A stretch of 64,000 nt of DNA, taken from positions 15,061 through 79,060 of the forward strand of contig CAYYUI010000007.1 of the NCBI GenBank assembly GCA_964474705.1, in the 5' to 3' direction. Below the pieces are notes generated by a model that searched no databases, was not told where the DNA came from, and worked only from the letters and a program-made list of their open reading frames with translations. Position numbers and translations under genes: made by a program. Numbering within the stretch: position 1 is the first letter of the stretch; the number at the start of each line of letters is the position of its first letter. Positions 29,753 through 64,000 of this stretch are shown here, piece after piece. Source of the stretch: an uncultured bacterium. Lineage in GTDB: Bacteria; Muiribacteriota; Ozemobacteria; Ozemobacterales; Ozemobacteraceae.

Positions 29753-29762
29753 TCAGGTTTCC

Positions 29763-30209
29763 TCAGCTTATCATGCCGTCATTTGGCCGGTTGATGAAGA
29801 GTTCTTTACTGTTTATCAGTTCTGAAACGACGTTCATGATGCGTTCGCGGGCTGCTTCTACATCTGATTCGCGTGCCGGGCCGATCAGAGTGATTTCACT
29901 CTTGAGATCACTCAATCCTCGCTGCGACATATTGTTGGCAAGGTTCTTGAGAACCGCCGGCGGAGCACCCTTGAGAGAAACAGCCAGGTCTCTGGGTCTG
30001 ATAATCTTGAGAAGGCGCTGAACCCCACGCGGATCGGCGAAGGCAAGATCTTCGAACATCAGTATCTTTTTGCGCAGCTCGAGAACGACCTGAGGTATGT
30101 CTTTGGCTAACCCGGCCATAATGTTGCGATTGGTTTTAGCATCGCAGTGCCGCATGATATTTGCAAGTATTTCCAGGCCAGTGCTGGCCCCAAGTTGAGT
30201 CTTAGCCAA
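29763..30209 (-). CDS. Stand-alone FliG C-terminal (torque-helix) domain protein of 148 aa. TTG start with an AGGAGG RBS; the start overlaps the fliG stop.
   Basis: Paralogous to the C-domain of the adjacent FliG. Compare LMFEDLAFADPRGVQRLLKIIRPRDLAVSLKGAPPAVLKNLANNMSQRGLSDLKSE with FVFEDVVLIDDRSLQRLFKEIDMKDLSVALKGVTDEVKEKFYKNMSKRAAEMLKEE. Confidence 0.7.
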   Translation of the reverse strand: MAKTQLGASTGLEILANIMRHCDAKTNRNIMAGLAKDIPQVVLELRKKILMFEDLAFADPRGVQRLLKIIRPRDLAVSLKGAPPAVLKNLANNMSQRGLSDLKSEITLIGPARESDVEAARERIMNVVSELINSKELFINRPNDGMIS

Positions 30210-31251: not shown

Positions 31252-31269
31252 GGTAGCTGTTCTCCTTCG

Positions 31270-33168
31270 TTACTTCGTTAACCACAGGCGAACAACCTGT
31301 ACGGCATCATCAGGCTTGGTTTCAATGAGGGTTCTAACACGTTCTTCGAGGAATTCGCGGGCGTTGGCCTGCTGATTGAGCCTGGCCAGTTCTTCTTCGC
31401 GCTCGCGGTCACGCTCGGCAATAATGGACGAGAGTCGATCGAGACCTTCAGTGAGAGTGCCGTCAGCCTTTTTCTGAAAGGCTTCACGGTAAATAAACTG
31501 CTCTTCAGGGGTCATTTCTTCAAAATCAGGTGGCAGAGCATCATTTTCAGAGGCAAATTGATAAGCGGCCAGGCGCAGATCCTGAACTTTGCGTTTCTTT
31601 TCTTCGACATCGGTGAGTTCCGGGAAGAAATTTTTGACATCCTTGAAACGGCGTTCCCAGTCTTTCCATTGCTGTTCGTTCTGCTGGAAAAGCTGCTGCT
31701 CGCGTCTCTGGCGCAGCGCTTCGGCTTCGGAGGCCGCTTCCTGCAGACGTTGCTGCTCTCTGGCCAGAGCTCTGGCTCTCGATACTCTGACAAAAATATA
31801 GATCACACCCAGGAAAACCGGGAATGACATGAGGAGGCCAACAACGATCATGAACATCTGTTTCTCCTGCTCTTTCTTCAGGGCAATTGCGGCTTTGGCT
31901 GCCTCTGCGTCGTCGTTCTTGAATGGCATTACCATCAGCGAAATCTTGTCGCCCCGACCCTTGTCAAACCCAACTGTCTGTTTGGCAATTTCGGTGATCT
32001 GATCGGTCAGGGTGTTCAGGCGTTCGGGGTCGTCGTTCAATACTACAGAAACGGTCAGACGCCTGATCGTGCCCTGTTCCTTGACGAACTTTTCTTTCGA
32101 TCTGGTGACTTCATAATTGCGGATCGTGCCGTCGCGTTCATATTTGTTGATCGTGGTATTCTCGGTGCCCGGGTAGCTGGGAGCACCAGGAGGCAAATTT
32201 GAATTGACGCCGGGCTCACCATCTTCTACAAGATCGCGGCCTTCGTATTTTTCGTTCTCAAGCTTCTCGGAAAGAATGATGCCGGTGTTCGAACCTTCAA
32301 CTGGCGGAATGACCACGTCACTGACCGCTTCCTTCTGGTCGAAATCCATGTCGAGGCGAACGCTTACCAGAGCGCGGCCGTAACCGAACATGCCCTCGAA
32401 AATCTGGGTCAATTCGGTGCGCAGATGCTTTTCGCGGTCGCGGGTGATTTTAAGCTGTGTGGTCTGTGACTTGTCAAGGGTCATCAGTTCCTCGTCTTCA
32501 ATGACCCTGGTCAGATCCCGGGCTTCGGTGTCGGCAATACGCACTTTGTCCGGCTGAAGACCTTCGACTGCCGAGCATACCCAGTCTCTGATCGCACGAA
32601 TCTGTTCCTGGTTAATTTCAGCTCCTGGCTTCAGTTGAAGCAGAATGGCGGCTGAAGGCTCTTTTTGATCTTCCTTGAATACTTCTTTTTTGGGCTTGGT
32701 TATACTGACGTTCGCTTCTTCAATTGGCTCCATGCGCTTGAGTGTGGTTTCAAGTTCGTTCTGCAGACCTCGAACATAATTCAGGTCGAATTCCTGCTGC
32801 GTCGTCCCGACAAAAATGGAACGTTCGTCGATGAGCTTCTGCCAGCCCGGTTTTGCCTGTGGCAGAGACTTTTCCTGGGCCAGCTGCAGCAGAATGTATG
32901 ATTTGTCGGTAAGGGGCACAAGAATGTCGGTAGAATCTTTGCCCAGTTTGTAATCTACGCTGAGCTCAGTAAGTTTGGCAGTGATTTTTCCAGCATCTTC
33001 AATTTTCAGCTGTTCTTCGAACAGGGCAATGTATTCTTTTTGTGTGCCCCACATCGATACGCTTATGACCCCAACCGTAATCAGAATTACAAAAGCCGCC
33101 AGACCTATCTGCTGGGCACGGGGTAATTTGGCGATTGGTTCCCATAACTGCCGAAGAAATTCTGTCAT
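31270..33168 (-). CDS. fliF: Flagellar MS-ring protein FliF, with an extended charged C-terminal region.
   Basis: N-terminal TM IGLAAFVILITVGVISVSMWG and a second TM near the C-terminus. Typical FliF domain order. Length 632 aa. Confidence 0.9.
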   Translation of the reverse strand: MTEFLRQLWEPIAKLPRAQQIGLAAFVILITVGVISVSMWGTQKEYIALFEEQLKIEDAGKITAKLTELSVDYKLGKDSTDILVPLTDKSYILLQLAQEKSLPQAKPGWQKLIDERSIFVGTTQQEFDLNYVRGLQNELETTLKRMEPIEEANVSITKPKKEVFKEDQKEPSAAILLQLKPGAEINQEQIRAIRDWVCSAVEGLQPDKVRIADTEARDLTRVIEDEELMTLDKSQTTQLKITRDREKHLRTELTQIFEGMFGYGRALVSVRLDMDFDQKEAVSDVVIPPVEGSNTGIILSEKLENEKYEGRDLVEDGEPGVNSNLPPGAPSYPGTENTTINKYERDGTIRNYEVTRSKEKFVKEQGTIRRLTVSVVLNDDPERLNTLTDQITEIAKQTVGFDKGRGDKISLMVMPFKNDDAEAAKAAIALKKEQEKQMFMIVVGLLMSFPVFLGVIYIFVRVSRARALAREQQRLQEAASEAEALRQRREQQLFQQNEQQWKDWERRFKDVKNFFPELTDVEEKKRKVQDLRLAAYQFASENDALPPDFEEMTPEEQFIYREAFQKKADGTLTEGLDRLSSIIAERDREREEELARLNQQANAREFLEERVRTLIETKPDDAVQVVRLWLTK

Positions 33169-51164: not shown

Positions 51165-52370
51165 GTGTTTGAAAGGGGAGTCTTGATGCCGCTCGTTCTG
51201 AACGACAAACGTGTTGTCGTGTTTCAGCCTGCGTCGAAAGATGATATCAGCGCGATCATCGACCTTTACATCAAGGTTTATAAAGGCAAATACACCCTCC
51301 CGGAAGTCGCAGACCCTGCTATTATTGCCAAAAAGGTAGAAGATCCTGCCTATTTCTGGACAGTTGCCAAAATAGAAGGCCGCCTCATCGGGTCAGTGAT
51401 TTTTGCCATCGACCCGGTCAACAAGATTGGCAAATCATACGCTGCTTCAGTGCTTAATGAATTTCGCGGTCAGGACGTCATGCGCACCATGGTCAGGCAC
51501 GGTCTGCAGCTGCTCACAGAAAAGACCCGCACCTGCGACATCATTTATGCAACCACCAGAACAGTCAGTTTTGCTCCTCAGGTGGTTCTTGAACATCTTG
51601 GTTTCATGTCTACCGGCATTTTTCCGAATGTGCGCAAAGTTGAATCCTTCGAGACACATGGGCTCGAGGTTTTTATGGGGCCTAAATGCCTTGAATACCG
51701 CCGCAAATGCCCGAAGCTGATTCCGGAAATGCTTGATTTCTATAATATCATCAGAGGCGATCTGAATCTTGAAGAGCCTGAGACTGTGGTTCTAGAGAGT
51801 GAAGACCCTCGCAGGATGGGCCCGGCCATCACCTTTGACGTTTTGACTGATGAAGATGCCGTCATCGAAAGGTTTTATCGCTATCAGGACAAAGACCTCA
51901 TGAAGAAGGTTTTCTTTCCTTTTACCGACCCTAATATGCTGTTTTCAGCCAAAGATGGCACTTCTGACATTTTCGTCAATTTCAATCCACTCGATGGCAA
52001 CGGAGTTATGGTCGGCTATCGGCATGCCGGTAAAGACCTGCGCAATACTCTGATGTGGTTCTGCGAAGAGGCTGCCAAATCAGGGATGCGTTATATTGAA
52101 ATGCTGGTGAGTGCTTTTTTGCCAAAGAAACAGCGGCTGGCTCTCGATGCAAAATTTCTTCCCTGCGCCTATTTCCCGGCCATGAAGATGTGCGATGACG
52201 GGCTGCGTGAAGACTTTCTCGTATTTTCCAGGTCGTTTGAAAGCCTCGATTTTATGGATATGCACCTGGTCGACAATAACAGGCGTTTTCTCGATGCGTT
52301 CATGAAATGCTGGTATGACCTTCTGGTCAGATGCCAGCCTGATTTTGACGAGGAGTGGAGAATTGGCTGA
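51165..52370 (+). CDS. Hypothetical protein, possibly a tandem GNAT-like acyltransferase fold (uncertain). First gene of the LuxE/LuxC-like cassette.
   Basis: N-terminal half shows a GNAT-like pattern (beta strand VVFQPAS, GRLIGSVIFAID, FRGQDVMRTMVRHGL...LEHLGF). The C-terminal half is a second, degenerate repeat. No confident family assignment. Confidence 0.55.
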   Translation: MFERGVLMPLVLNDKRVVVFQPASKDDISAIIDLYIKVYKGKYTLPEVADPAIIAKKVEDPAYFWTVAKIEGRLIGSVIFAIDPVNKIGKSYAASVLNEFRGQDVMRTMVRHGLQLLTEKTRTCDIIYATTRTVSFAPQVVLEHLGFMSTGIFPNVRKVESFETHGLEVFMGPKCLEYRRKCPKLIPEMLDFYNIIRGDLNLEEPETVVLESEDPRRMGPAITFDVLTDEDAVIERFYRYQDKDLMKKVFFPFTDPNMLFSAKDGTSDIFVNFNPLDGNGVMVGYRHAGKDLRNTLMWFCEEAAKSGMRYIEMLVSAFLPKKQRLALDAKFLPCAYFPAMKMCDDGLREDFLVFSRSFESLDFMDMHLVDNNRRFLDAFMKCWYDLLVRCQPDFDEEWRIG

Positions 52371-53490
52371 AGCAAAACCATTTGCCGCGTGTGGCGAACT
52401 TTTTGACGTTTCTGACGCTTTCGATCACAACCCTTATACCGGCCAGCTTTTTGACCGGGCCATGAACGAGGCACTGCGCTGGCATGCAGCCCGGTGCCCT
52501 GAATTCCGGGCATTTCTTTCCTGTGCCGGTCTGGGTGATTTCGACCAGGACTGCGCCCCTGAACAGATACCACCTCTACTGGTCACCATCTTCAAAGAAT
52601 TCAGGCTGATATCAGTGCCTGAAAAACAGGTCAAGATCGAATTGACCTCGTCCGGTACCGGTGGCCGCAAAAGCGCTATTGTGCTTGACCACCGCTCTTA
52701 TCGCCGTATTCTGAAGATCGTAAACAGTATTTTTGCTTCTCTGGGCATGGTCGATCACTCGCAAAAGGTTAATTATCTCTGTTTTACTTACGATCCGAAA
52801 GTTGCCGGAAATGTCGGCACCGCATTTTCAGATAAAATGCTCACTGGCCTGACTGCCAGACGCTCAGTCTTTTATGCCATCCGCTGGAACCATAACGCCA
52901 ATGATTTTGAATTCGATCTAGAAGCTACGGTTAAAAAGCTGATCGAGTTCAGTCGCCGTCCCGAACCAGTTAGAATTCTGGGGTTTCCAGCCTACCTCTG
53001 GCAGGTATGCAATCGCCTTGATGAGAAGGGCATGCGTCTGAATCTCGGTAAAAATTCATATATCATTACCGGTGGCGGCTGGAAGATGCACAAAGACCTC
53101 GAGGTGACCAAAGATATATTCAAGGATCGCATTGAGAAAGTTCTTGGCATGCCACGTCAGAATCTGCGTGACCTGTTTGGCATGGTTGAACACGGGATTC
53201 CCTACGTAGACTGCGAAGCCGGGCGGCTGCATGTCCCGGTGTTTGCCCGCGCGCTGGCGGTCGACCCCGAGACTCTGCAACCGGTCAAAGATGGCGAAGA
53301 AGGCCTGCTCTATCTCATGACCCCATATCTTTCCAGCTACCCTTCGATAGCCTTGCTGACTACCGACAAAGCGATCATCGAGGGCGACTGCCCCTGTGGC
53401 CGCCCCGGAAAAACCTTTCGCATAAGCGGCAGAGCCGGACTGGCCAAGCACAAGGGCTGCGCCATCACCGCGCTCGATCTGCTTAAATAA
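52315..53490 (+). CDS. LuxE-family acyl-protein synthetase (long-chain fatty acid-luciferin-component ligase homolog). An alternative TTG start at 52363 has an AGGAG RBS and overlaps the upstream stop.
   Basis: Direct motif matches to Vibrio LuxE: TSSGTGG (vs TSSGTNG), YIITGGGWK (identical), HVPVFARALAVDPETLQPVKDG (vs [22 protein letters not shown]), and C-terminal KHKGCAI (vs TQKGCAL). Confidence 0.85.
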   Translation: MTFWSDASLILTRSGELAEAKPFAACGELFDVSDAFDHNPYTGQLFDRAMNEALRWHAARCPEFRAFLSCAGLGDFDQDCAPEQIPPLLVTIFKEFRLISVPEKQVKIELTSSGTGGRKSAIVLDHRSYRRILKIVNSIFASLGMVDHSQKVNYLCFTYDPKVAGNVGTAFSDKMLTGLTARRSVFYAIRWNHNANDFEFDLEATVKKLIEFSRRPEPVRILGFPAYLWQVCNRLDEKGMRLNLGKNSYIITGGGWKMHKDLEVTKDIFKDRIEKVLGMPRQNLRDLFGMVEHGIPYVDCEAGRLHVPVFARALAVDPETLQPVKDGEEGLLYLMTPYLSSYPSIALLTTDKAIIEGDCPCGRPGKTFRISGRAGLAKHKGCAITALDLLK

Positions 53491-53493
53491 CGG

Positions 53494-56106
53494 ATGAACA
53501 ATATGAAAAAGCAAAAATGTATGGTTTTTGGCCGGCAGGTCGATGCGGAATGGCTGAACCAGGAAACCATCGGCGAAGTTCTTGCCGATGCGGCAGAAAA
53601 AGCTACCCTGGCAGCCGAACCAGATATTGAATGTATAATCGCTATTCTTGACCAGGTCGGGAAATCCTGGGCTGATCCTGAATATCATCTGAGGAGGCAG
53701 GCAGCAAAGATTTTGCCGGGCCTGACCCTTTTCAGCCCGGCAATGATCGAAGAAGGGTTTGCGGTTGTCAGCGCCATCTGCAGCCGACAGAATCTGGAAA
53801 AAAGACTCCGGGGAGAGCTCGGCGATCCTGCGGTTCTCGATCGCGGTATCGCGATGCCGCACCATGGTTACAGACTTCGTGCCGTTCCGCGCGGAATTCT
53901 TCTGCATCTTACCGCCGGTAATGTCTTTGTGGGTGCTGTTGACAGTCTTGTTTCCGGCATCATCACCAAGAATGCCAACATTCTCAAAATGTCGCGTGTC
54001 GATCCGGTATTTCCGCTGCTTTTCATCGAAAGTATCAAGGAACATGATCCGGCCGGCATTATCTGGCCCAACCAGGCGGCATTACTCTGGAAAGGCGGCG
54101 ATGCAGCCGTCGAGAATACCCTCTTGCAGGCTCCGATTACCGTCGTTTTCTGGGGTGGTCATGATGCTCTTCTGTCTTTGAAAGGTCGTATCGGCGCATC
54201 TACCAGACTGATCGAGAACGGGCCGCGCTACTCTTTTGCGGTAGTCGATGGCCGGCGCATCAGAAAAGGGCCCGCAGCTTCGATGATCAGAGGTCTGGCA
54301 CTCGATCTCTGTCGCTGGGATCAGCAGGCCTGCTCATCGCCGCATGTGGTCTACGTAATTGACCATGATATCAAGACAACGCATCTGCTTGCCGAAGCGC
54401 TTTATGATGAGCTTGTTCAGCTGCGTGAAGAGCTTCCGACTGGAGAACTGAGCTTCGACGAAAAAGTCGAGATTCGCAAGGTTCGCGAACTGGCACGCAT
54501 GTCGCAGGCCCGTGGCGAAGGCCGACTGATCTGCCCGGAAGATTTCAGCTTCACGCTGGTGATCGAGCATGACAGCGCCTTTAAGGTATCCTGTCTCAAC
54601 CGGACGCTTTTTTTCAAACAGACCCGGGACCTCGATACGATGCTGGAACAGGTCAGGCCGCTGGCAGCGTATCTGCAGACCGCCGGAATATATTGTGACA
54701 ACGAAATGGCAACCATGCTCGAGAATGAACTTTTCGCCACCGGCGTGAAACGCATCACCGAAATCGGTGGAATGAGCGAAGGGCATGATGGGGCACCGCA
54801 TGAGGGCAGTTTTCTGCTGCGCGGACTGGTTGAATGGGTCGATGTCGAATATCTCGGCAACTCAGCCAGTCGTGTTGAACTGCTTCTCAAGCAGATTCAA
54901 GCCTCCCCCTACTATCGGAATGCTGTTGAAAAAGCCGGCGGATGCGGTTTTGAGTATTTCCATAAGTTGCCGCTACTTGACCGCGAAACTTTTTACCGAA
55001 ATTCGCCCCCTGAATCTGAAGCGATTCTTACCGGGCCGATGACCGACAGTTACGTTTATGCCTCCGGGGGCACCACGGGCAGTCCGAAGTTCACTTTTTA
55101 TTCCAACGACGAATATCGCTACGTGACTGATGTACTGACAGATATTTACCGGAATGCCGGCATCTGCAGCAGGGATCGGGTAGCCAACCTTTTTATCGCC
55201 GGCAATCTCTGGACAAGTTTCAATGTTGCCGGCCGTGCCCTCGAGAACCTCGGTTGCCTGAATCTGCCGGTTGGCGGGGCTTCCGATCTCGAAAATATTC
55301 TCAAGTATCTGCAGATTTTTTCGGTCAATGCGGTGGTCGGCCTGCCGTCGATCATCATCAACCTTGCTGAAGAAATCAGCAGACGTGGTCTTCCGATCAA
55401 AATCGAAAAGATTCTTTATGGCGGCGAACATCTGCGTCCGCAAACCTGTGACTTTCTTCGTGAGGCTGTCGGTGCACAGCTGATCCGTTCGGCCGGCTAT
55501 GCCTGTGTCGATACCGGCCCGATCGGCTGGCAGTGTCTGCATCTCGATGGTTCGATACATCATGTTCTCGAAGAATACTGTTATGCCGAGATTCTCGATA
55601 CGGTTAATCATCAGCCTGTCGGTGGCAACACCGCGGGCGAAATTGTTGCAACCAATCTGAACCGGATATTGATGCCGGTGGTTCGCTATCGAACCGGCGA
55701 TCTGGGGCGCTGGGTCGAGACTGGGGTCTGCACCTGCGGTTTCAGAGGTCGGTCTTTTGAACTGCTTGGCCGATGCGATGATCTGCTGGTAATCGGCGGA
55801 ATCAATCTTATGCCTGTTGACATCGCAGCCGGTCTTGCCGGTTTACCGGTCAGTCAGTCATTTCAGATTGCCGCTCAGACAGCTGAAGGTCGCGACAGGC
55901 TGTGCCTCAGGCTCGAGGCTGAAAAGCCGGTTCCAGACAGCAGAGTCGTCGAGGCTTTGCGCCGGGGTTCATACAAAATTGCCGAATCTCTCGCCGAAAA
56001 CTGGATGACTATTGTAATTGAGTGGCATAAACCGGGCGCTATCAAACGTAACCCCCGCACCGGCAAACTCAAACCCGTGGTCGACGAAAGATTCAGTTCA
56101 GATTGA
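53494..56106 (+). CDS. Fusion protein: an N-terminal LuxC-family acyl-CoA/acyl-protein reductase domain (about aa 1-460) and a C-terminal PaaK/coenzyme F390 synthetase-like adenylate-forming domain (about aa 470-870).
   Basis: The LuxC-like segment is LHLTAGNVFVGAVDSLVSGIITKNANILKMS, with a putative catalytic Cys at QQACSSPH. The C-terminal half carries ASGGTTGSPKFTF (AMP-binding P-loop, as in PaaK) and a PaaK-like C-terminal subdomain. Confidence 0.75.
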   Translation: MNNMKKQKCMVFGRQVDAEWLNQETIGEVLADAAEKATLAAEPDIECIIAILDQVGKSWADPEYHLRRQAAKILPGLTLFSPAMIEEGFAVVSAICSRQNLEKRLRGELGDPAVLDRGIAMPHHGYRLRAVPRGILLHLTAGNVFVGAVDSLVSGIITKNANILKMSRVDPVFPLLFIESIKEHDPAGIIWPNQAALLWKGGDAAVENTLLQAPITVVFWGGHDALLSLKGRIGASTRLIENGPRYSFAVVDGRRIRKGPAASMIRGLALDLCRWDQQACSSPHVVYVIDHDIKTTHLLAEALYDELVQLREELPTGELSFDEKVEIRKVRELARMSQARGEGRLICPEDFSFTLVIEHDSAFKVSCLNRTLFFKQTRDLDTMLEQVRPLAAYLQTAGIYCDNEMATMLENELFATGVKRITEIGGMSEGHDGAPHEGSFLLRGLVEWVDVEYLGNSASRVELLLKQIQASPYYRNAVEKAGGCGFEYFHKLPLLDRETFYRNSPPESEAILTGPMTDSYVYASGGTTGSPKFTFYSNDEYRYVTDVLTDIYRNAGICSRDRVANLFIAGNLWTSFNVAGRALENLGCLNLPVGGASDLENILKYLQIFSVNAVVGLPSIIINLAEEISRRGLPIKIEKILYGGEHLRPQTCDFLREAVGAQLIRSAGYACVDTGPIGWQCLHLDGSIHHVLEEYCYAEILDTVNHQPVGGNTAGEIVATNLNRILMPVVRYRTGDLGRWVETGVCTCGFRGRSFELLGRCDDLLVIGGINLMPVDIAAGLAGLPVSQSFQIAAQTAEGRDRLCLRLEAEKPVPDSRVVEALRRGSYKIAESLAENWMTIVIEWHKPGAIKRNPRTGKLKPVVDERFSSD

Positions 56107-56401: not shown

Positions 56402-56701
56402 CTACATTCCGAATTTGGCACTCAACAGCAGTTTGGCGCCGCGGCTGAGTCTTTTTATCTGCATTTCGCGTTTTGAAGCAGTTGACCGGTCTGGCTGGCG
56501 CTCCTGATAACGCAAGATGACCGGCCCTCTGCCTCTGGTAAATCTGGCACCGGTGCCGTCATTGTGTGCGGCCAGCCGTTTCTCCAGATTGTTTGTTATT
56601 CCGGTGTACAGCCTGCCATCGCGGCATTCGACTATATAGACCGTCCAGGCTTCATCTTCGGCTGCATGGCTGATATCTGGGTTGTCAGGCCGGTTTGACA
56701 T
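56402..56701 (-). CDS. GIY-YIG nuclease-superfamily small protein (UPF0213/YhbQ-like). The start is uncertain among 56701, 56728 and 56758.
   Basis: WTVYIVECRDGRLYTGITNNLEKRLAAHN is the GIY-YIG core. About 100 aa. Confidence 0.7.
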   Translation of the reverse strand: MSNRPDNPDISHAAEDEAWTVYIVECRDGRLYTGITNNLEKRLAAHNDGTGARFTRGRGPVILRYQERQPDRSTASKREMQIKRLSRGAKLLLSAKFGM

Positions 56702-58277
56702 GGTAATAGACCAGCGGTTTTTCGACATTTTTGACCGGTGCCGATTCCGGGCCGGCAAACTGCCAGCGGCCTGATTCTAAAGCAACTTCTCTGATCTTTT
56801 CGGTGGCGAGAACCTGCCCTGCCTTGGCCAGCCCCTGCAGGCGGGCGGTGATATTCATGCCGGAGCTGAATGCCGTGAGATCGTCGTTTGGTCCTATCAG
56901 ACCTACTACAGCAGGGCAGAAGTTAGTGCCGATCGCAACTCCGAACTTTTCGAAATCAGGGTGCTTCTGAATGTCGTCATTCTCAGGCAGGCGCAGATAC
57001 TCGTTGGTGTAATCGATGATTATTTTAGCGCATTCAAGAACCTTCTGCACGATCGCTTTCGAATCTAGTTCGTAGAAAGGTGGGCCGAACAGCAGAATCA
57101 GGCAGTCGCCGACAATCTTGTCAAGACAGGCCCCGTGCGGAAAAACTCTGGTGACGATGCCATTCGACCATTTGTCGACGAAATTGGTGATTCGTTCAGG
57201 AGTTTTGAGAATCTGTTCGCTCATTTTGGTGAAACCTGAAATATCGGCGAAGATTATGCCAATCTGTTCGGCGCGGGGTGTCAGATAAACCTTTTCGTAG
57301 CCTGGCTCGGCGGTAAGTCTCGCAATAACCGGGTCAGGGAAAAATTTGCGCAGCATGTTACGTTCGCGGTTGAAGTCGACCAGTCGCTGGCGCAGGCTCT
57401 CGGCAAAAACCTGGACGATTTCGCGGGCGAAAATCGAGAAATTGCGGCCATCTTCAGGCACAAAGATGACCTTGCCGATCAGATTTTCTTCAATCAGGCC
57501 GTCAAGCAGATAAGTGATCGTCAGGTTTTCACAGCCGATTGCCTTTTTCAGCGCTTCACTGTCTGCAGACAGGCTATTGCCGTTTGCTTTGATAAAACTT
57601 TCAAGCCCAGGATGGACGTTTTCGCCGGAACCATAAACCCGCTGGTCATTCTCATATACCAGATAATTGATGTTCTCGACCCCGGTTAGTTCGTGATCTG
57701 AATAGAGAATTATCAGTTTGCTGAAGGGAACTTCCTTGCGCAGAACATACACGGCTCCGTCGATCGAGTCGACGATCGAATGGTTCTTGAGTGCAGACTG
57801 AATGCCCATGATCAGGCTGTGCTTCAGACTGCTGGTGTGAATTCCGAAAAAAAAGTTATCGAGCAGTTCACTGACTGTGTCGAGCATGGCAGTGCCAAGG
57901 TTTTTCTCGGGCGCTGTTTCGTGCGGAAAAGCAAGGGCGATTGCCCCGGTGATTTTACCGGCCATCTCGATCGGCTGAGCAAACCAGTGAATATTGTTGA
58001 AATTGAAGTTGATGGCCCGGGTTATCTGATGCAGCTGTGGGACGAGTCTCTTGATGTTGTTGTCGCAGCTGCCATAACAGAATACCTGATGGTTGAGGTT
58101 TTCGTCCTGGGTTTCGACAAACATTGCCGTGGTTTTGCAATGCTCCGCAAGAAACAGAAAGACCTTGCCCAGCGAACCATCAAGGTCATAATGTGCGGAC
58201 TCGAGCTCTTCTACTAACTTGTCAAGTTTCAGGTTCAAGTCACGCAGCTGCTGAAGTTCCTGAAAATTAAAATCCAT
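56685..58277 (-). CDS. Adenylate/guanylate cyclase (class III CHD) with N-terminal GAF-like sensor domain(s).
   Basis: C-terminal IGIIFADISGFTKMSE...KIVGDCLILLFG...GIAIGTNFCPAVVGLIG is CHD. The N-terminal ~330 aa have a GAF/PAS-like alpha/beta pattern. Confidence 0.8.
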   Translation of the reverse strand: MDFNFQELQQLRDLNLKLDKLVEELESAHYDLDGSLGKVFLFLAEHCKTTAMFVETQDENLNHQVFCYGSCDNNIKRLVPQLHQITRAINFNFNNIHWFAQPIEMAGKITGAIALAFPHETAPEKNLGTAMLDTVSELLDNFFFGIHTSSLKHSLIMGIQSALKNHSIVDSIDGAVYVLRKEVPFSKLIILYSDHELTGVENINYLVYENDQRVYGSGENVHPGLESFIKANGNSLSADSEALKKAIGCENLTITYLLDGLIEENLIGKVIFVPEDGRNFSIFAREIVQVFAESLRQRLVDFNRERNMLRKFFPDPVIARLTAEPGYEKVYLTPRAEQIGIIFADISGFTKMSEQILKTPERITNFVDKWSNGIVTRVFPHGACLDKIVGDCLILLFGPPFYELDSKAIVQKVLECAKIIIDYTNEYLRLPENDDIQKHPDFEKFGVAIGTNFCPAVVGLIGPNDDLTAFSSGMNITARLQGLAKAGQVLATEKIREVALESGRWQFAGPESAPVKNVEKPLVYYHVKPA

Positions 58278-58304: not shown

Positions 58305-58979
58305 TCATTCCTTGAGACTGAAGGACAGAACATGCCAGGTCACATAACCGGCAATGGCCAGCCAGACCAGACCAACCAGCCAGCCTGGCATGAACAGCAT
58401 TTCGCCAATTTTGGAAGCATCAGAGCAGGCTATCGATCGGTCGATCAGATCTTCTTTGATGTCGATAAGCACATAAAGACATGAGGTCAGGCCAAGAAAT
58501 TTCAGGAACTGGTCGCAGACTTTCTCGCTTGTATAAGCTGCGAGAGCCAGCAAACCCATCCCGGTCAACGAACAGATGATGATGCCTTCAAGATTTCTGA
58601 CCCAGATAGCAGTCACTGCCAGAAGCAGTATGCCTAACCCGGCGGTGATCTGTTGATCGAACCTGGTTTTGACTGCTCCAAGCAGAATCAGGCATCCCCA
58701 GAACAGACTGCCCAGATAGCCGGCACTGGTTACGATAAAACGTATACCCCCGGCTGTCCAGCAGACACCGCCGAGATTGGCGTTGATCTCTATTTTGACA
58801 ATTTCACCGCCGGTAAAAACGGCCGCCAGACCGTGCGACAGCTCGTGAAAGAATACAGTAAGATACTTGATCGGCAGCACCAGCATCGAGTCCCAGAAAA
58901 AGATGGCCAGCAGCACAGCCGCCATTGGCAGCATCATTCCTGCGGCATTTCCAGAAGGTTTCAGTTCCGTCTGTTCATT
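58305..58979 (-). CDS. Peptidase M50B-like membrane metalloprotease (HExxH inside a TM helix). Start probably MNEQTELK; the listed ORF extends to 59135 and overlaps the upstream gene end.
   Basis: FFHELSHGLAA is a zinc-binding motif of the M50B type (PF13398), in a polytopic membrane protein of about 6 TM segments. Confidence 0.7.
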   Translation of the reverse strand, partial: NEQTELKPSGNAAGMMLPMAAVLLAIFFWDSMLVLPIKYLTVFFHELSHGLAAVFTGGEIVKIEINANLGGVCWTAGGIRFIVTSAGYLGSLFWGCLILLGAVKTRFDQQITAGLGILLLAVTAIWVRNLEGIIICSLTGMGLLALAAYTSEKVCDQFLKFLGLTSCLYVLIDIKEDLIDRSIACSDASKIGEMLFMPGWLVGLVWLAIAGYVTWHVLSFSLKE

Positions 58980-59010
58980 CATCGAATCGATTTCCAAGCT
59001 GACTCCTTCT

Positions 59011-62000
59011 TCAGGCTGCAGTGGCCGGCTTAAAGGTGAAAAACCGGAACAGCAGATAAAGGGCAAGGGTTGCCGAGAACCCGAGCTGCACAAAATGATC
59101 GGCCTGATAAAGCTTGAGATAAACGGCAATCGCAAGAATCATTCCCTGCACGGCAGTTACCATGAACCATTTGTAATGGTTGGCTGAGGTGAACATCTTG
59201 ATCACGCCGACAGCAGCCAGAATACCGACCACAATCATGATGAACTGAAACAGGAAACCGCGCCCCTTTCTCGGGTTGATCAGCATGCCTTCGATGTAGG
59301 GCGCTTTGCCGGTCGGTTCGATCTGCAGCATCGAGAAAGATATCGGCCAGCTGGTCGTTGGAATCTTGAATTTGACAGGCAACAGACCGGTCTGGTCAAA
59401 AACCTTGTCGCTCTGTTTCTGCTGAGAAGCCATCTGCGACTGAGCAGGTGCTTTCTGCCGTTTCTGAATATTCGAGTAGGAGCTCAGCGAAGAGAAATAG
59501 GAACTGTTGTCGAGAAATCTGGTTTCGGCAATTTTCAGCAGCCGGTCGACGTTCCCTTTTTCACGCATCAGCTCGTAGCCTTCCGGCAGGTAGACGACCC
59601 AGCTCAATTCGCTGATCGGCAGATGGGCAGATGGCAACTCCATGTAAGTCTGGTTGAAAGCGCTCAATTCTTTTCCAAGCTTGATCGCATAGACTATTTC
59701 CACCGGGAAAGACTTGGATTCGCCGCCTTCCAGCGCTGATCTGACGATCGGCAGATTGTATACTCCCAGCTCGGCATTGAGCCCGGATCTTACCGACAGG
59801 CCGGCAACCTGAGTGCTCCAGAGTTCGGTAGTCGCCGCGCCAAACTGTGGCAGCTTGACTTTCAGGAATTGTTCCGAGTTGTTTCGTACTTCATAGACAA
59901 CCCTGGTCAGCAGGTAACCGTCTTCGTTGAGCAGGGTCATTGCTTCGGCGCGATCGATGACTGCTGTCTGCTGCTCGATGTCTTCAGGCCGAGCAACCGT
60001 TATAGTCAGATTATTCGGATGTTTGAGAAATTTGAAGGCGTAAGGAGTCTTTTCAGGCCGCTCACGGTTCCAGTCTTTGAGAAATTCAGCAGCGACAGTC
60101 GGTGTGTAGCCTTCCCGGTTGCCATTTTCCGATATCTCGAGGGCCTGAATACAGCCGATGCCAAGCAGGCCCCAGGATTGTTCTACATCGAGCGGAATTA
60201 TTTCCGGCACGTTGTAATTTCCATCCTTGAGGTTTTGAATGTCTTCTTCGAATTCGATCGTCAGCTGTGTGTTCCCACGGATTTTCGATTTGAATACCAC
60301 ATCGATGTGGCGGCTGTTACCGGCTTCAACCTGGCGCCAGTCCTCGATCAGCTTGTTTTCGACTTTCAGCACTCTTATTTTGTCGGGAATCTGGAAGGCG
60401 ATGCTGGCAATCCCGCTGCCGCCCATGATTTTGAGGTCGAAAATGTTGATGCCGGTGACGAAGCCCTCTTTGAAGTGGAGCAAATTCTGTTGTCGCACGG
60501 TTATTCTGGTCTTTTCTTCGATTATAACCGGTTCTTCCTCTGTTTCAGATGGTTGATCGGCAGATTTGACCTCCTCGGGCGGGGCACTTTCGACGTTGCG
60601 GTAAAGTTCGAAGTTGACAGTCTGAGTCGGGGGTAGAATGGCAAAAAATACGGTCTTTTCAGGAGTTTTTTCGCTGTTGCGCAGCACGCCCGGGTCGATC
60701 CAGGCTTCGCAATCTTTTTCGTTCACCGTAATCTGCAGAGTCGAAATGCAGACTGGAACCATGTTGAGGCTGAAACGGCTGGAATGCTTGTATTCGCTGG
60801 ATGCCATCGGAATAAAAAATTCAACGGTGACCATTGCCGGACCAGAAGCATTGGTCATGAAGCCGTAGGAGGTTTCACCCTGGTCTTCGATCAAGGTCAT
60901 GGCAAGAGGCTCGTCGTTAAGAGAAGCGGAAGAAGGAATGGCTTCGGTTGAAAGAAGACCGACTTTTTTCCAGCCCGAGTTGAAGAGGTTCAGCTTGAAT
61001 TCAGCATTGAATCTGACGCCGCGCTCTTCAATCGTGCCACGGTATTTGACCCCGTCAAAACTGAAGGCGGCCGGGGCGATTACTTCCTTGACCGGTGGAA
61101 TTTCGATGTCTTTGAGAAAGCGATAATCGGCTTCTGGAATGATTACGGCCCGATCACCCGAAGGCATTACCTTCGAGAGATCCTGGAACGGTGCCATGAC
61201 CCGGATTTCGCGGTAATCGGCGGCAAAAACCGGCATGCCGGCAAGAATGATGATGGTCATGATGAGCATGAGCAGTATTGCCGTCATACTGCGGCCGGAA
61301 GTTGGTGGAACATCGGTTTTGATTTCGACAACCGGAGTCTGGTTTTCGATTTTTACCTGACTCAGAAGCAGGATAGCTTTCCAGATCACTGCGCCGATCA
61401 TGGCCAGCCAGAACCCGGCATTGGCGGCATCGCCAACACTCTTCAGTTTCAGGTCGACAATTGACAGAAAAACGATGATCAGGGCGGCGAAGGTGATTTT
61501 GGACGGGATGCCCTGGAAAGCGCCGGCAACGAAATACAGGGCGCTAAAAAGGGCCAGGATGAAGGCAACGATTTCGGTGGTTCGGAGAATTGAAGCCCAG
61601 ACATAGCTCAACCTGACGCTCGGGCAGGTCGAATTGGGCAGCAGGGCTCCATCGGTTGCGACTTCAGCCATTACCAGATCACGTTCAAGGGTATAAAAAT
61701 TCTTGGTCATGACAAATTTGGATTTGATTGGCAGCATGCCACGGTTTTTGGCAGCTCCGAACCCCGCTTTGCCGCCTTTGCCAGGAGCTTCCTGCTGAAG
61801 GTCAGCCATCTGCTCGTTCATTGCCTGAGGTGCGGCCAGCATGCTTTTGCCGCTGACATCGGCACGCTTGTATTCAATGCTTTCATTTTCCATTCTGCGT
61901 GCAACGTTGACCTGATTGAGATCACCTTCAACCGGCCCATGCAGCTGGCAATAAATGACGCCTGTTTCTGCCAGATTGCCTGAAGACAGGTAGTGACATC

Positions 62001-64000
62001 TCGTTTCGGGTAGATTTGGCCTGCTTTTTAGATATTTGCTGTTGAGCAGAGCATCGATGTCGAGCGACGTCATGCCATTTTCCTTGTCCATGTTGTACAT
62101 TTCGACAGCCCCGAGCAATACCCGCTGATTGGCGTAACAGGCTTTGTCTCTTGCCTGTTCTCTTGCTTTTCGGAAATTGGGTATTGCCATGGCCGCCAGG
62201 ACGCCGATGATCATGATCACAATCATCAGTTCGATAAGGCGAAAACCCTTGCCGCCGAACACGAAACCGAAAATGGCGCAGACAGCATTCCACAGCCAGC
62301 CGAGAATCGACAGCAGCAGGCTGCGTGATACCACCGCCAGGACGATGACAGCCATGAAGAGCAGGAAAATCACTGTGTCAGGATGTCTGACCAGCGACCA
62401 GGCAGCGCTCAAAATATGCATGAAACCACGAAAGAAGAATGGATCTTTTCTGGCCTGTGGGTCTTTTACCGTTCCGGTGAAGCTGTAGAGATGGTAATCG
62501 TCAGGGGCATACAGATACCATGAAAAATGAGAAACGGGTATGTCGACGAGTGGTGGCGCAAAGGCCATGCTGCCATACCAGGCGACGTCATCAACCGGTT
62601 CCTTGATGAGAATCTGCAGATTGATTTCGACCGGTTCGCCAATTTTCTGGCTCATCTCGAGGGGAATCTGAACCATTCCGGGAAGTTTGCTGTTGACGGG
62701 CTTGATAGAAACGCCGCTGCGGAAAGTCGACAGCACTTCGGCCCCTGAGGCCAGCTGTAATTGCAGATACTGCTTGTTGTTGTTGCGGATGTTCATGCTC
62801 ACCAGCGTATTGCTTGATTTGTTGGTGGTGAAGGTAGTTTTTACATCCATGCTGTCGGCGACGACGGTCTGCTGCGGCACGTCAAGATAGCGCTTGATTG
62901 CCACCTCGATATTTGTCGGGCTGACGTTATGTCTCCAGGCGAGCAACAGCGGTCTTGTCGCTCTGTCTTTGAGTGGTTGAGGAATTTCAAGATGATCTAT
63001 CGGATAAATGCCTTTGGCAAGCGGATTTGTGTCGAGGTTGCCCGGTTGTACTTCAACTGAGGTCAGCGCTTCGACAGCTATCACCCCGAGTTCTCTTTCG
63101 ACTCCGACTGGTGACAGTTCGGGAAGACTGATCATTTTGCTGGTGAGGTCGATCGGAGCTTCGTAATCTATCTCGATCTGGCAGACATCTTCGCGGCCCG
63201 GAGAAAATTCGATGCGCAGCCGTTTATGATTGCCTTCACGGAGCATTTTCTGGTTCTGAGGGCGGTCGGCATTGACCGCGACGATTTCGATTCCTTCAGG
63301 GATATTGAAGGAAAAGCTGGAAACGGGTGCCTTGCTTATCGTGTAGTCAAAAGTTTTATGCACGTAGATCGATGTTTCGCCAAGGCTGACCAGAGTGTGG
63401 GAACGTGCATACACCAGTGGCTGAATCTGCGGACGCGGGGCGGTAACCGGCAAGGAAACTTCAGCAGTTGTACTTGCCGTGCCGCTGGCAGTCGTGGGAA
63501 CCGGTTCGACCGCCGGTGGTTTCTGGATGTCGGCTGCCGGTTGTCTGGCAAATTTGCGCCGCCATTTGAGGTTGACGTCACTGTTGGCGCCAAGCCAGCC
63601 GATGAATTCACAGCCTTTTCCTTCTGATGTTTCGGCAACATTGAAATCTTTGAAAGTTGTGCTGTCAATTGAGAGGATGAAATCGGCGGCATTCAGCTGC
63701 AGAAAAGTGAGCGGAATGCGGGTTATGCTGAACTGCAGAGTGAAAAGATCGTCGAAATTCTGTATCGGCACGACGAGAGCGACCCGACAGACATGCGCAC
63801 CCCGGCCGGCAATCGGCAGGATGAACATGGCGTCTTTCCAGTTGTTCTGGCTGAGGGTGTCGTTGTTTGAAGTCATTGTGTTATAGACATTCTGCAGCAT
63901 GTTCTGACGGTTCATTTTGCCGAACTGAACCTGGCGGGTCTGCCCGGCAAACCAGTTGGTGCGCAGCGTTGTCGGCCGGTCGTCGAGGGTAACTGATTCT
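59011..64000 (-). CDS. Giant multi-domain membrane protein of more than 1,660 aa. It is N-terminally truncated by the window edge, and the frame stays open through position 64000. It contains two homologous halves of about 600-700 aa; each has a beta-rich ectodomain followed by a TM cluster. The first TM cluster contains a class-III (type IV pilin/pseudopilin) signal-like segment plus a GspG-like pseudopilin globular region.
   Basis: Uninterrupted ORF of 4.9 kb. Internal pilin motif GKG|FRLIELMIVIMIIGVLAAMAIPNFRKAREQARDKACYANQRVLLGAVEMYNMD. The second half begins with a signal-peptide-like MTAILLMLIMTIIILAGMPVFAADY. Internal repeats match, e.g. FNIPEGIEIVAV...SHFSWYLYAPDDY vs FQIPDKIRVLKV...SELSWVVYLPEGY. 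A degenerate pilin-like segment lies near the C-terminus (GRGFLFQFIMIVVGILAAVGVI). Confidence 0.75.
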   Translation of the reverse strand, partial: ESVTLDDRPTTLRTNWFAGQTRQVQFGKMNRQNMLQNVYNTMTSNNDTLSQNNWKDAMFILPIAGRGAHVCRVALVVPIQNFDDLFTLQFSITRIPLTFLQLNAADFILSIDSTTFKDFNVAETSEGKGCEFIGWLGANSDVNLKWRRKFARQPAADIQKPPAVEPVPTTASGTASTTAEVSLPVTAPRPQIQPLVYARSHTLVSLGETSIYVHKTFDYTISKAPVSSFSFNIPEGIEIVAVNADRPQNQKMLREGNHKRLRIEFSPGREDVCQIEIDYEAPIDLTSKMISLPELSPVGVERELGVIAVEALTSVEVQPGNLDTNPLAKGIYPIDHLEIPQPLKDRATRPLLLAWRHNVSPTNIEVAIKRYLDVPQQTVVADSMDVKTTFTTNKSSNTLVSMNIRNNNKQYLQLQLASGAEVLSTFRSGVSIKPVNSKLPGMVQIPLEMSQKIGEPVEINLQILIKEPVDDVAWYGSMAFAPPLVDIPVSHFSWYLYAPDDYHLYSFTGTVKDPQARKDPFFFRGFMHILSAAWSLVRHPDTVIFLLFMAVIVLAVVSRSLLLSILGWLWNAVCAIFGFVFGGKGFRLIELMIVIMIIGVLAAMAIPNFRKAREQARDKACYANQRVLLGAVEMYNMDKENGMTSLDIDALLNSKYLKSRPNLPETRCHYLSSGNLAETGVIYCQLHGPVEGDLNQVNVARRMENESIEYKRADVSGKSMLAAPQAMNEQMADLQQEAPGKGGKAGFGAAKNRGMLPIKSKFVMTKNFYTLERDLVMAEVATDGALLPNSTCPSVRLSYVWASILRTTEIVAFILALFSALYFVAGAFQGIPSKITFAALIIVFLSIVDLKLKSVGDAANAGFWLAMIGAVIWKAILLLSQVKIENQTPVVEIKTDVPPTSGRSMTAILLMLIMTIIILAGMPVFAADYREIRVMAPFQDLSKVMPSGDRAVIIPEADYRFLKDIEIPPVKEVIAPAAFSFDGVKYRGTIEERGVRFNAEFKLNLFNSGWKKVGLLSTEAIPSSASLNDEPLAMTLIEDQGETSYGFMTNASGPAMVTVEFFIPMASSEYKHSSRFSLNMVPVCISTLQITVNEKDCEAWIDPGVLRNSEKTPEKTVFFAILPPTQTVNFELYRNVESAPPEEVKSADQPSETEEEPVIIEEKTRITVRQQNLLHFKEGFVTGINIFDLKIMGGSGIASIAFQIPDKIRVLKVENKLIEDWRQVEAGNSRHIDVVFKSKIRGNTQLTIEFEEDIQNLKDGNYNVPEIIPLDVEQSWGLLGIGCIQALEISENGNREGYTPTVAAEFLKDWNRERPEKTPYAFKFLKHPNNLTITVARPEDIEQQTAVIDRAEAMTLLNEDGYLLTRVVYEVRNNSEQFLKVKLPQFGAATTELWSTQVAGLSVRSGLNAELGVYNLPIVRSALEGGESKSFPVEIVYAIKLGKELSAFNQTYMELPSAHLPISELSWVVYLPEGYELMREKGNVDRLLKIAETRFLDNSSYFSSLSSYSNIQKRQKAPAQSQMASQQKQSDKVFDQTGLLPVKFKIPTTSWPISFSMLQIEPTGKAPYIEGMLINPRKGRGFLFQFIMIVVGILAAVGVIKMFTSANHYKWFMVTAVQGMILAIAVYLKLYQADHFVQLGFSATLALYLLFRFFTFKPATAA

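Follow-up and report, generated by a model that had tools for sequence, protein, structure and literature searches.

A complete type IV pilin module within a giant two-module membrane protein of Riflebacteria

Results

We identified a giant inner-membrane protein of Riflebacteria (Ozemobacteraceae) that is built from two tandem copies of an uncharacterised module, with a complete ComGC/GspG-like type IV pilin of 107 aa located in the loop of the first module. Its gene lies in the window, by which we mean the whole analysed stretch of 64,000 nucleotides, and is followed by a gene for an intramembrane metalloprotease. Pilins of other types occupy the same loop position in proteins from two further phyla. 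The relevant features are listed below by window coordinates and strand, with residues numbered in the windowed ORF.

58305..58982, minus strand: Peptidase_M50B-like intramembrane metalloprotease gene, 225 aa, with an HELSH motif (Pfam, 2.3e-45)
59011..63999, minus strand: giant ORF, the C-terminal 1,662 residues of a protein of ~1,834 aa; 5' end outside the window
62443..63999, minus strand: ectodomain 1, partial (residues 1-519), all-beta and homologous to ectodomain 2 (AF2 model 2, pLDDT ~85-90)
62257..62442, minus strand: helices a, b and c (residues 520-581; hydropathy, and AF2 helices 2-19, 21-38 and 41-62)
62245..62256, minus strand: GGKG loop in place of a prepilin leader; scissile bond predicted between G585 (codon 62245-62247) and F586 (62242-62244)
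61924..62244, minus strand: complete type IV pilin module (residues 586-692), with an alpha1 helix starting FRLIELMIV, PNFRKAREQARDKACYAN, and a small head carrying C621, C668, C684 and H687
61741..61923, minus strand: linker of 61 aa, disordered and poorly conserved (mean pairwise identity 22%; pLDDT <50 in both AF2 models)
61573..61740, minus strand: beta-segment 1 (GMLPIKSKFVMT...), predicted from AF2 models to fold back onto ectodomain 1
61354..61572, minus strand: TM helices e, f and g (hydropathy and AF2)
61222..61287, minus strand: TM helix h, resembling an internal signal peptide (SGRS, hydrophobic core, PVFA|AD), with a conserved P..A before REIRV and putative signal-peptidase cleavage
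59530..61221, minus strand: ectodomain 2, all-beta; its fold resembles those of the M1 aminopeptidase N-terminal domain and of Ost1/ribophorin I
59257..59388, minus strand: beta-segment 2 (GLLPVKFKIPTT...), preceded by a low-complexity loop
59014..59256, minus strand: C-terminal TM helices i, j and k (hydropathy, pilin HMM), helix i being the supposed degenerate pilin copy

The giant ORF ends at a TGA codon (59011-59013, minus strand), and its frame is open up to base 63999, giving 1,662 codons; the first ATG in the window is at 63915, and no stop codon lies upstream of it. Since the homologue P0001 (93% identity) has 1,834 residues, approximately 172 at the N-terminus, including the signal peptide, are missing from the windowed ORF; full-length homologues are about 1,834 aa and carry a Sec signal peptide. 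These figures bear out the single long ORF running off the window that was reported in a preliminary description, and they extend its ~600-aa N-terminal part before the pilin to approximately 757 residues in the full protein. As also reported there, neither a pilus-assembly ATPase nor a secretin is encoded among the window ORFs of at least 150 aa that were scanned, in which the flagellar FliI is the sole secretion-type ATPase.

The same architecture was found in 54 full-length or near-full-length proteins (35-93% identity) and at 35 GTDB species-representative loci, which belong nearly throughout to Riflebacteria/Ozemobacteraceae. It is extremely improbable that a frameshift or misassembly has joined two or three ordinary genes (ectodomain, pilin, ectodomain). 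The pieces do exist as separate genes elsewhere, in the form of single-module relatives and free pilins, but the ORF is uninterrupted in the 54 proteins and 35 species representatives and recurs across independent assemblies, one closed chromosome of 5.2 Mb among them, and neither an internal ribosome-binding site nor a conserved start codon lies ahead of the pilin. The homologues thus rule out such an artefact, and the single-gene reading stands. Two-gene splits, a check proposed in the preliminary description, were not seen among relatives: the short matches P0067-P0074 look like fragments, with P0067, P0072 and P0074 starting without Met and P0068 and P0070 likewise appearing truncated. An internal start that would yield a normal prepilin was also considered and rejected, since the candidate GTG codon at V(-6) has no Shine-Dalgarno sequence and is not conserved across the family.

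The two halves of the giant protein are homologous (BLASTP over ~610 aa, 21% identity, E=1e-29), confirming the internal duplication originally proposed. Each module starts with a Sec signal peptide and an all-beta ectodomain (~600 aa), continues with a disordered loop and a beta-segment predicted to fold back onto the ectodomain, and ends in three TM helices. The pilin had been assigned to the first TM cluster; a more accurate description of this region is an insertion, in the loop of module 1, of a pilin together with three helices. In AF2 models, beta-segment 1 has a pLDDT <50 without ectodomain 1 and a pLDDT of 79-92, with strands, when ectodomain 1 is modelled; because it is ordered solely in the latter case, two cleavage products would stay associated. 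Beta-segment 1 and helices e-g are colinear with beta-segment 2 and helices i-k, but the match is weak (hhalign E=0.036). Helices a-c were rejected as a duplicate of i-k, hhalign detecting nothing between them.

The module belongs to a large unnamed superfamily without a Pfam model. Its signature comprises a signal peptide and an I-x-V-P-Y/F-x-[DE]-L start, then an all-beta ectodomain that closes with W-x-x-Y-x-P-x-x-Y, followed by a loop, a beta-segment with GLLP[IV][KR] and two or three C-terminal TM helices, and both halves of the giant protein fit it. A profile search at E<=1e-3 recovered at least 3,487 clusters (50% identity) in single, double and larger forms from bacteria and some archaeal MAGs; distant relatives adjoin ECF sigma factors and large vWA proteins. 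The giant protein is not a member of an annotated family of known function: Pfam and NCBIfam matched its pilin part and nothing else, and gave no family name for the ectodomain, the M50B protein (NCBIfam), the upstream 276-aa protein or nine sampled relatives.

The near-canonical prepilin segment and GspG-like globular region that had been recognised from the sequence alone hold up in profile searches. The segment GGKG|FRLIELMIVIMIIGVLAAMAIPNF scores 19.4 bits with TIGR02532 (cutoff 16.3) and 57.4 bits on an HMM of free-standing pilin N-termini, and matches ComGC (9e-13) and GspG (1.9e-10). It shows the features of the class III motif (Gly/Ala at -1, ~21 hydrophobic residues, often Glu at +5), and the module has the lollipop fold of a ~50-residue alpha1 and a globular beta head. 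The motif does not lie at the N-terminus behind a short hydrophilic leader; it is found at residue 585 of the windowed ORF, equivalent to 757 of 1,834 in P0001, with a TM helix and a four-residue turn ahead of it. With the ComGC equivalog model NF040999 the score of 48.2 bits falls short of the cutoff (75), although the alignment covers profile positions 2-75 of 84, and by these profile matches the embedded pilin is best classed as ComGC-like and not as a ComGC equivalog.

G-1, F/I+1 and E+5 are retained in approximately 42 of the 54 members, down to 43% overall identity. The first ten residues (FRLxELMIV) of the embedded pilins are kept too. The alpha1C region and head, with a mean pairwise identity of 58% (ectodomains 52%, linker 22%), rank among the most conserved parts of the giant protein. 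Five divergent lineages lack G-1, F+1 and E+5 (P0043-48, P0050, P0051, P0053) yet keep the rest of the protein and the pilin head, which is 37-71% conserved there. Residue +2 is an invariant Arg in the embedded pilin and Thr in free pilins; Arg+2 and Glu+5 mostly disappear together, and positions 11-21 of alpha1N vary more in embedded than in free pilins. The degenerate pilin copy previously suspected in the C-terminal TM cluster found no support: helix i (GRGFLFQFIMIVV...) scores 1.9 bits on the free-pilin HMM, in the range of other TM helices (-5 to -6 bits), and has a predicted orientation opposite to that of the pilin helix. Its G-x-G-F pattern is also present in the partial family members P0070, P0072 and P0074.

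The embedded pilin also has free-standing counterparts in Riflebacteria, proteins of 112-125 aa that share up to 66% identity with it by BLASTP over ~89% of the query and 53-63% in a MAFFT alignment. The segment is a complete pilin and no generic TM helix. The free-standing pilins end exactly at the end of the embedded module, the C..C..C..H pattern is common to both, and every residue that is invariant in free pilins is kept in the embedded module. Embedded modules have a mean similarity of 0.61 to free pilins and 0.63 to each other; being equally near to both, they evolve under pilin-like constraints. Same-genome gene conversion was rejected as a cause of this conservation, since same-genome pairs rank just 7th-51st of 119; a neighbour-joining tree (~110 aa) does not resolve whether the embedded modules are monophyletic. 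The genome encoding P0022, a related one of 5.2 Mb, has a free-standing pilin with PilB/PilT on one side and a prepilin peptidase on the other, so pilus machinery is present in the lineage.

Insertions of three different pilin types occur at one loop position in three phyla (Riflebacteria, Planctomycetota and Verrucomicrobiota). In the planctomycete proteins P0056/P0057 and the verrucomicrobial P0091, one clear TM helix and a basic loop precede G|F/L...E5, and these pilins also keep G-1 and E+5.

The ATG of the M50B gene lies 28 nt past the stop of the giant gene and has a GAAGGAG ribosome-binding site. In 27 of 27 canonical-motif rows, which are the loci with enough downstream DNA and in which three genomes are entered twice, an M50B gene on the same strand begins no more than 600 nt from the stop. 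M50B is absent in three lineages (L005, L041, L043), all of them without the pilin motif, and is retained in two degenerate-motif lineages. By this spacing and conservation, the M50B gene is apparently a co-transcribed operon partner of the giant gene. This linked gene, the similar free-standing pilins and the insertions in other phyla go beyond the preliminary description.

Discussion

Hydropathy and AF2 models place three helices directly ahead of the pilin, of which b and c are clear TM helices and a is weakly hydrophobic with an invariant FFFRGF, and seven TM helices downstream of it. By TM-helix parity, helices a-c are predicted to lead the chain inwards, from the outer side to the cytoplasmic face, where the G|F site would lie, and prepilin-peptidase-type cleavage at G585|F586 is predicted from the motif.

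The reading that we place foremost, with slightly less than even confidence, is that a pilin remains tethered after processing and links a type IV filament with the ectodomain complex. A ComGC-like Riflebacteria pilin has been inserted whole, together with three helices, into the disordered loop of module 1; as these helices would bring the chain to the cytoplasmic face, the pilin helix would cross N-in/C-out as in an ordinary prepilin. The chain would be cut at G585|F586, the enzyme being the prepilin peptidase of the organism or the M50B-type protease of the operon, yielding a pilin with a free N-terminus whose C-terminus is still joined through the flexible linker of ~61 aa to beta-segment 1 and helices e-g. 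The leashed pilin could then pack through its conserved alpha1 and head with the free pilins that serve the type IV pilus machine, so that a pilus or pseudopilus would be physically coupled to the ectodomain complex, a coupling that could act as an anchor, length limiter or mechanical link. In its fullest form, as a polyprotein with a processed internal class III signal peptide, a leashed middle pilin that enters a filament as anchor, terminator or coupler, M50B taking part in maturation or release, and the same solution, whether newly arisen or maintained, present with three different pilin types in Riflebacteria, Planctomycetota and Verrucomicrobiota, we regard this proposal as unlikely.

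Several observations count against cleavage and tethering. The leader is a four-residue Gly-rich turn straight after a TM helix, with no hydrophilic N-terminal peptide, and we know of no prepilin peptidase substrate in such a context. There are no adjacent pilus genes, helix a is weakly hydrophobic, and with seven TM helices after it the pilin could not move far in a filament. Since the five lineages without the motif keep the head and the remaining protein, cleavage cannot be essential to the core function of the family. An alternative is a pilin that is exapted and uncleaved, in which a permanent TM hairpin has the pilin helix as one of its arms and the head is an extra periplasmic domain, with no proteolysis; the head might then bind zinc or promote oligomerisation, or it might mimic a pilin and dock on the pilus platform or the membrane pilin pool. 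The Gly-rich turn and the loss of the motif beside a conserved head speak for this reading. The invariant Arg+2 looks like an adaptation to such a hairpin and could pair with Glu+5 within the helix, alpha1N positions 11-21 are more variable than in free pilins, and the downstream TM helices would bar extraction from the membrane. We consider this a genuine but lesser possibility, because G-1 and the membrane-buried Glu+5 are strictly kept in ~80% of members and in the independently inserted pilins of Planctomycetota and Verrucomicrobiota, the first ten residues are retained, and a dedicated intramembrane protease gene is conserved alongside. Cleavage and the pilin helix as an anchor, the two options of the preliminary description, both remain live.

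It is also conceivable, if rather improbable, that M50B and not a prepilin peptidase cuts at least one TM helix of the giant protein, either to process a polyprotein into its separate parts or for the regulated release of a fragment. Site-2 proteases favour N-in/C-out helices, the orientation predicted for the pilin helix. The conserved gene pair and the intact HELSH motif are consistent with this alternative, as are the ECF sigma factors and vWA proteins beside distant relatives, a typical setting of envelope signalling, and TM helix h, whose resemblance to a cleavable internal signal peptide suggests polyprotein-like processing. Adjacency by itself does not prove a protease-substrate relation, however, and the M50B protein has neither a PDZ nor any other substrate-gating domain; we found no description of PF13398 (Peptidase_M50B) function in the literature searched, and the protein is unnamed by NCBIfam. 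Its retention in two degenerate-motif lineages implies that the protease may have a target other than the pilin helix.

The defining mark of type IV pilins is an N-terminal signal, trimmed by a dedicated peptidase, and to our knowledge this signal lies at the start of every known pilin, "modular" ones included. In the giant protein, a complete pilin under purifying selection is found in the middle of a multi-pass chain; its cleavage motif is intact and its topology is predicted to be correct. Processing, if it occurs, would extend the range of substrates known for prepilin peptidases or M50B proteases, and a pilus subunit would be permanently membrane-tethered, with a bearing on filament anchoring, termination and mechanical sensing. 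Our findings also bring to light a superfamily of ectodomain-plus-TM proteins and give the PF13398 protease family a candidate partner. We found no description of such an arrangement in the literature on Riflebacteria pilins, prepilin peptidase polyproteins, Peptidase_M50B/PF13398 or giant planctomycete proteins.

Among known systems, the ectodomain resembles the luminal domain of Ost1/ribophorin I and the N-terminal beta domain of M1 aminopeptidases in fold alone: there is no sequence-level relationship and no catalytic domain, and with no match to Pfam Ribophorin_I (PF04597) or Peptidase_M1_N at E<=1 it does not qualify as a Ribophorin I/Ost1 member. RseA/RseP and pro-sigmaK/SpoIVFB are site-2-protease (M50) substrate systems, and the giant protein is similarly a TM-anchored, multi-pass protein encoded beside an M50-family protease, its pilin helix being predicted in type II orientation; unlike those substrates it carries no sigma or anti-sigma domain, and the substrate relation is putative.

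The pilin itself is similar to the type IV pilins and pseudopilins ComGC and GspG (TIGR02532/IPR012902, PF07963 and PF26697 ComGC_C) in its G|F-x-x-x-E motif, 51-residue alpha1 and small beta head, and shares with the free-standing Riflebacteria pilins the invariant PNFRKAR.QAR.KAC..N.RV..GA.EMYNMD and C..C..C..H. In contrast to ordinary type IV pilins, its motif is internal (residue 757 of ~1,834), a signal peptide, a 650-aa ectodomain and three helices take the place of a short hydrophilic leader, and position +2 is Arg and not Thr; with a linker and seven TM helices after it, it cannot be a freely polymerising subunit. Modular pilins such as PilB and PilC of S. sanguinis have been defined and surveyed as proteins that carry an IPR012902 motif at the N-terminus and present soluble effector domains, located C-terminally, on the filament (Raynaud et al., bioRxiv 10.1101/2021.01.27.428410). 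The giant protein likewise fuses a pilin module to a large non-pilin module, but its pilin is internal, the graft is membrane-anchored and a large N-terminal part is added. The internal motif places it outside the modular pilins as defined, although the hypothetical G|F cleavage product alone would qualify as one.

A giant gene conserved across Riflebacteria

The giant gene enters the window through its end, and every peptide quoted from it in the preliminary description was found in its translation.

59011-63999, minus strand: giant ORF, 1,662 codons, stop TGA at 59011-59013, frame open to base 63999

The first ATG lies at 63915 (the start given by the ORF lister), upstream of which the frame stays stop-free within the window. 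In a collection of 5.8 billion proteins, we identified 54 close family members (35-93% identity), most of which span the full query at 1,775-1,906 aa; those with names are mostly labelled Candidatus Riflebacteria, Rifleibacteriota or Ozemobacter. Since the best match, P0001 (93% identity), has 1,834 aa and opens with a Sec signal peptide of typical form (MKLRFLLPALCFVLTCFSVHA|E...), approximately 172 N-terminal residues of the giant protein are missing from the window. We also found 35 loci in GTDB species representatives, almost all Riflebacteria/Ozemobacteraceae, the closest being 96% identical. Together, these 54 homologues and 35 loci exclude a frameshift or assembly artefact; there are no split versions of the gene among the homologues, and shorter matches start without Met or otherwise look truncated.

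Domain anatomy and topology

Boundaries were drawn from hydropathy and two AlphaFold2 models (mean pLDDT 71.8 and 73.7), in window-ORF residue numbering.

Residues 1-519 (window part): ectodomain 1, all-beta
Residues 520-581: helices a, b and c
Residues 582-585: GGKG four-residue turn
Residues 586-692: pilin module
Residues 693-753: disordered linker, 61 aa
Residues 754-809: beta-segment 1
Residues 810-882: TM helices e, f and g, followed by a short loop
Residues 905-926 (window 61222-61287, minus strand): TM helix h, resembling an internal signal peptide
Residues 927-about 1490: ectodomain 2, followed by a low-complexity loop
Residues 1538-1581: beta-segment 2
Residues 1582-1662: TM helices i, j and k

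The two halves of the protein are homologous (P0001 75-683 versus 1104-1656, 21% identity, E=1e-29, BLASTP). Profile-profile comparison aligned beta-segment 1 plus helices e-g colinearly with beta-segment 2 plus helices i-k over 116 columns, a weak match (E=0.036), and matched nothing to helices a-c. Beta-segment 1 had a pLDDT below 50 in the model without ectodomain 1 and of 79-92, with strands, in the model containing it; beta-segment 2 was modelled confidently beside ectodomain 2. The models suggest that the closing strand segment of each module folds back on its own ectodomain, and we infer that helices a-c, the pilin and the linker form an insertion into a loop of module 1.

Both ectodomains probably lie on the outside, because each is preceded by a signal peptide (cleavable, ectodomain 1) or a signal-peptide-like helix (ectodomain 2). 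Helix h combines a basic n-region (SGRS), a hydrophobic core and the sequence PVFA|AD, in which P..A is conserved across the family; signal peptidase I could cut here, in a polyprotein-like manner. Helices e-g and i-k are likely to be equivalent three-helix anchors, and a consistent path of the chain would then place the pilin helix N-in/C-out, as in an ordinary prepilin. The chain would have to cross the membrane an odd number of times ahead of the pilin helix, with the weakly hydrophobic helix a as one of the spans. Planctomycete and verrucomicrobial relatives are simpler here, with a single clear TM helix and a basic loop ahead of the motif.

The embedded pilin

Judged by its sequence, the embedded pilin is complete and of a type local to Riflebacteria. 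NCBIfam matches in the giant ORF are confined to this stretch, which matches ComGC at 9.3e-13 (positions 2-75 of the 84 in the profile), GspG at 1.9e-10 and the GFxxxE domain model above its cutoff. Against solved structures, its alignments start at the first residue of mature GspG, geopilin and Thermus PilA (E=6e-8 to 1e-7). Searching with the pilin module only gave 191 proteins; among the matches listed, nearly all are free-standing pilins of 112-125 aa (N_methyl plus ComGC_C), many with Riflebacteria names. Free-standing pilins reach 66% BLASTP identity to the embedded module over approximately 89% of the query. In a MAFFT alignment (53-63% identity) the C-terminal ends fall within a few residues of each other and every invariant residue, including three Cys and one His, is common to both. 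The only systematic differences are that free pilins have a short Met-Lys/Arg leader and Thr at +2, whereas the embedded module has Arg there. Embedded modules resemble free pilins as much as they resemble one another, and gene conversion does not explain the likeness, because embedded and free pilins of the same genome are not unusually similar.

Among the 54 aligned members (MAFFT), approximately 42 retain the prepilin motif around the predicted cleavage site G585|F586, namely G-1, F (sometimes I) +1, R+2 and E+5. The motif is gone from the most divergent members (P0043-48, P0050, P0051, P0053), and P0041 retains the Glu only, although the alpha1C helix and head are almost unchanged in all of them. 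Mean pairwise identity is 58% in the pilin head, 52-53% in the ectodomains and 22% in the linker, which puts the head with the best-conserved regions of the giant protein.

Window 61939-62139, minus strand: C621, C668, C684 and H687 of the pilin head, three conserved Cys and one His

The second Cys position has two variants (PE.GC.Y and CPE..G.Y), each occurring in both embedded and free pilins, and the Cys/His pattern also occurs in free-standing Riflebacteria pilins. The His, at the fourth ligand position, gives way to Cys in P0036 and P0039, a hint that the periplasmic head contains a Cys3His/Cys4 metal site rather than disulfides.

The preliminary description had also seen a degenerate second pilin in the C-terminal TM cluster, and we reject this assignment for the C-terminal TM helix. 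Its remark that no pilus-assembly ATPase or secretin lies nearby held, as there were no pilus genes among the scanned window ORFs of at least 150 aa. In the 5.2-Mb genome encoding the homologue P0022, a free pilin lies between PilB-/PilT-type ATPases and a prepilin peptidase. The sole secretion-type ATPase among the scanned window ORFs is FliI, unrelated to pili, in a flagellar fliF-fliG-fliH-fliI cluster (27323-33168, minus strand).

Relatives in other phyla

The ectodomain is unrecognised by Pfam and NCBIfam. Among 1.84 billion cluster representatives (50% identity), an ectodomain 2 profile matched 3,487 proteins at E<=1e-3 (2,189 of them at E<=1e-10), with lengths of about 620 to 2,700 aa and in single, double and larger forms. 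Nine sampled members had no Pfam domains; sampled names were all 'hypothetical protein', from sources including Altiarchaeales, Edwardsbacteria and Verrucomicrobiota MAGs. These profile matches outline a large superfamily, built on the ectodomain plus 3-TM module and present in bacteria and Altiarchaeales MAGs, for which neither Pfam nor NCBIfam has a model.

Two modules and TM clusters are also found in the planctomycete giants P0056-P0064. Two of these, P0056 and P0057 (loci L006/L007, Planctomycetota, 2,711-2,785 aa), contain an internal DUF1559-type pilin (N_methyl 1007-1032 plus SBP_bac_10), and P0091 (Verrucomicrobiota, 2,315 aa, likewise two-module) a pilin of another type; the pilin in each case is one typical of the lineage. 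All three retain G-1 and E+5, and the pilin of P0057 and P0091 follows ectodomain 1 and precedes the beta-segment, matching its position in the Riflebacteria protein. Either pilins were inserted repeatedly or the insertion is ancient.

In the distant relatives examined, the ectodomain-family gene adjoins one for a large protein that either has vWA domains or belongs to no known family.

L008 5022-11090 (Sandaracinus): neighbourhood with a 762-aa large protein ahead of the ectodomain-family gene
L009 3614-14882: neighbourhood with a 1,240-aa large protein (vWA/YfbK_C domains) ahead of the ectodomain-family gene
L006 4199-16358: neighbourhood with a 1,158-aa large protein ahead of the ectodomain-family gene

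An ECF sigma factor gene is directly upstream of the large protein in two of these three (Sandaracinus and L009), a hint that the wider ectodomain family works in an envelope-signalling setting.

The M50B partner and gene neighbourhood

58305-58982, minus strand: Peptidase_M50B-like gene, 225 aa, HELSH, Pfam 2.3e-45, start 28 nt past the giant-gene stop
56685-58277, minus strand: adenylate/guanylate cyclase-domain gene, 530 aa

A GAAGGAG ribosome-binding site precedes the M50B ATG at 58982, which is almost certainly the real start; a mechanical ORF call (58305-59135, TTG start) overlaps the giant-gene 3' end. Neighbourhoods were compared in the window, L001-L005 and the 35 GTDB loci, counting M50B genes on the same strand that start within 600 nt of the stop. 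M50B is present in 27/27 rows for canonical-motif loci with enough downstream DNA (three rows repeat a genome, and L033 was left out). It also accompanies L020 (Ser -1, Ile +1, E+5 kept). Of five lineages without both G-1 and E+5, two keep it (L042, L004/L044) and three lack it (L005, L041, L043), and it is absent beside the distant relatives examined. There were no other conserved neighbours across the sampled loci. The literature searched gave no description of the function of PF13398, and the M50B protein has no NCBIfam name.

The cyclase-domain gene just downstream of M50B is also there in L001, nearby in L002 and absent from L003-L005; a second such gene lies at 7416-10472 (plus strand). 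A cluster at 51165-56106 (plus strand) combines a GNAT-like gene with genes for an acyl-protein synthetase (LuxE-like) and an acyl-CoA reductase (LuxC-like), the latter carrying a fused AMP-binding domain; L001 and L002 also have this cluster close to the giant gene. Elsewhere in the window (16480-22419, plus strand), three tandem paralogues (671, 656 and 656 aa) each combine CarboxypepD_reg with a right-handed beta-helix, with fn3 in the first two.

Interpretation

A captured, still pilin-like module fits these facts better than a generic anchor does. A cut at G585|F586 would give the pilin a free N-terminus; the cleaved pilin would stay leashed to the membrane complex and could pack with free pilins. 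We favour this sequence of events tentatively, at somewhat short of an even chance. Its main rival, to which we give about one chance in three, is that the pilin is an uncleaved, exapted hairpin, as the Arg at +2, the TM helix immediately upstream of the motif and the lineages that have lost the motif would suggest. That M50B is the key enzyme is an unlikely third view, which overlaps both the cleaved-pilin and the hairpin readings.

Some members carry the database labels 'prepilin-type N-terminal cleavage/methylation domain-containing protein' or 'competence protein ComGC', so the motif has already been machine-detected, though uninterpreted. The literature searched contained no account of an internal pilin module, the giant protein family or its M50B partner. 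Of described concepts, the modular pilin comes closest; its survey (bioRxiv 10.1101/2021.01.27.428410) was restricted to proteins whose motif is N-terminal, whereas the pilin embedded here is internal.
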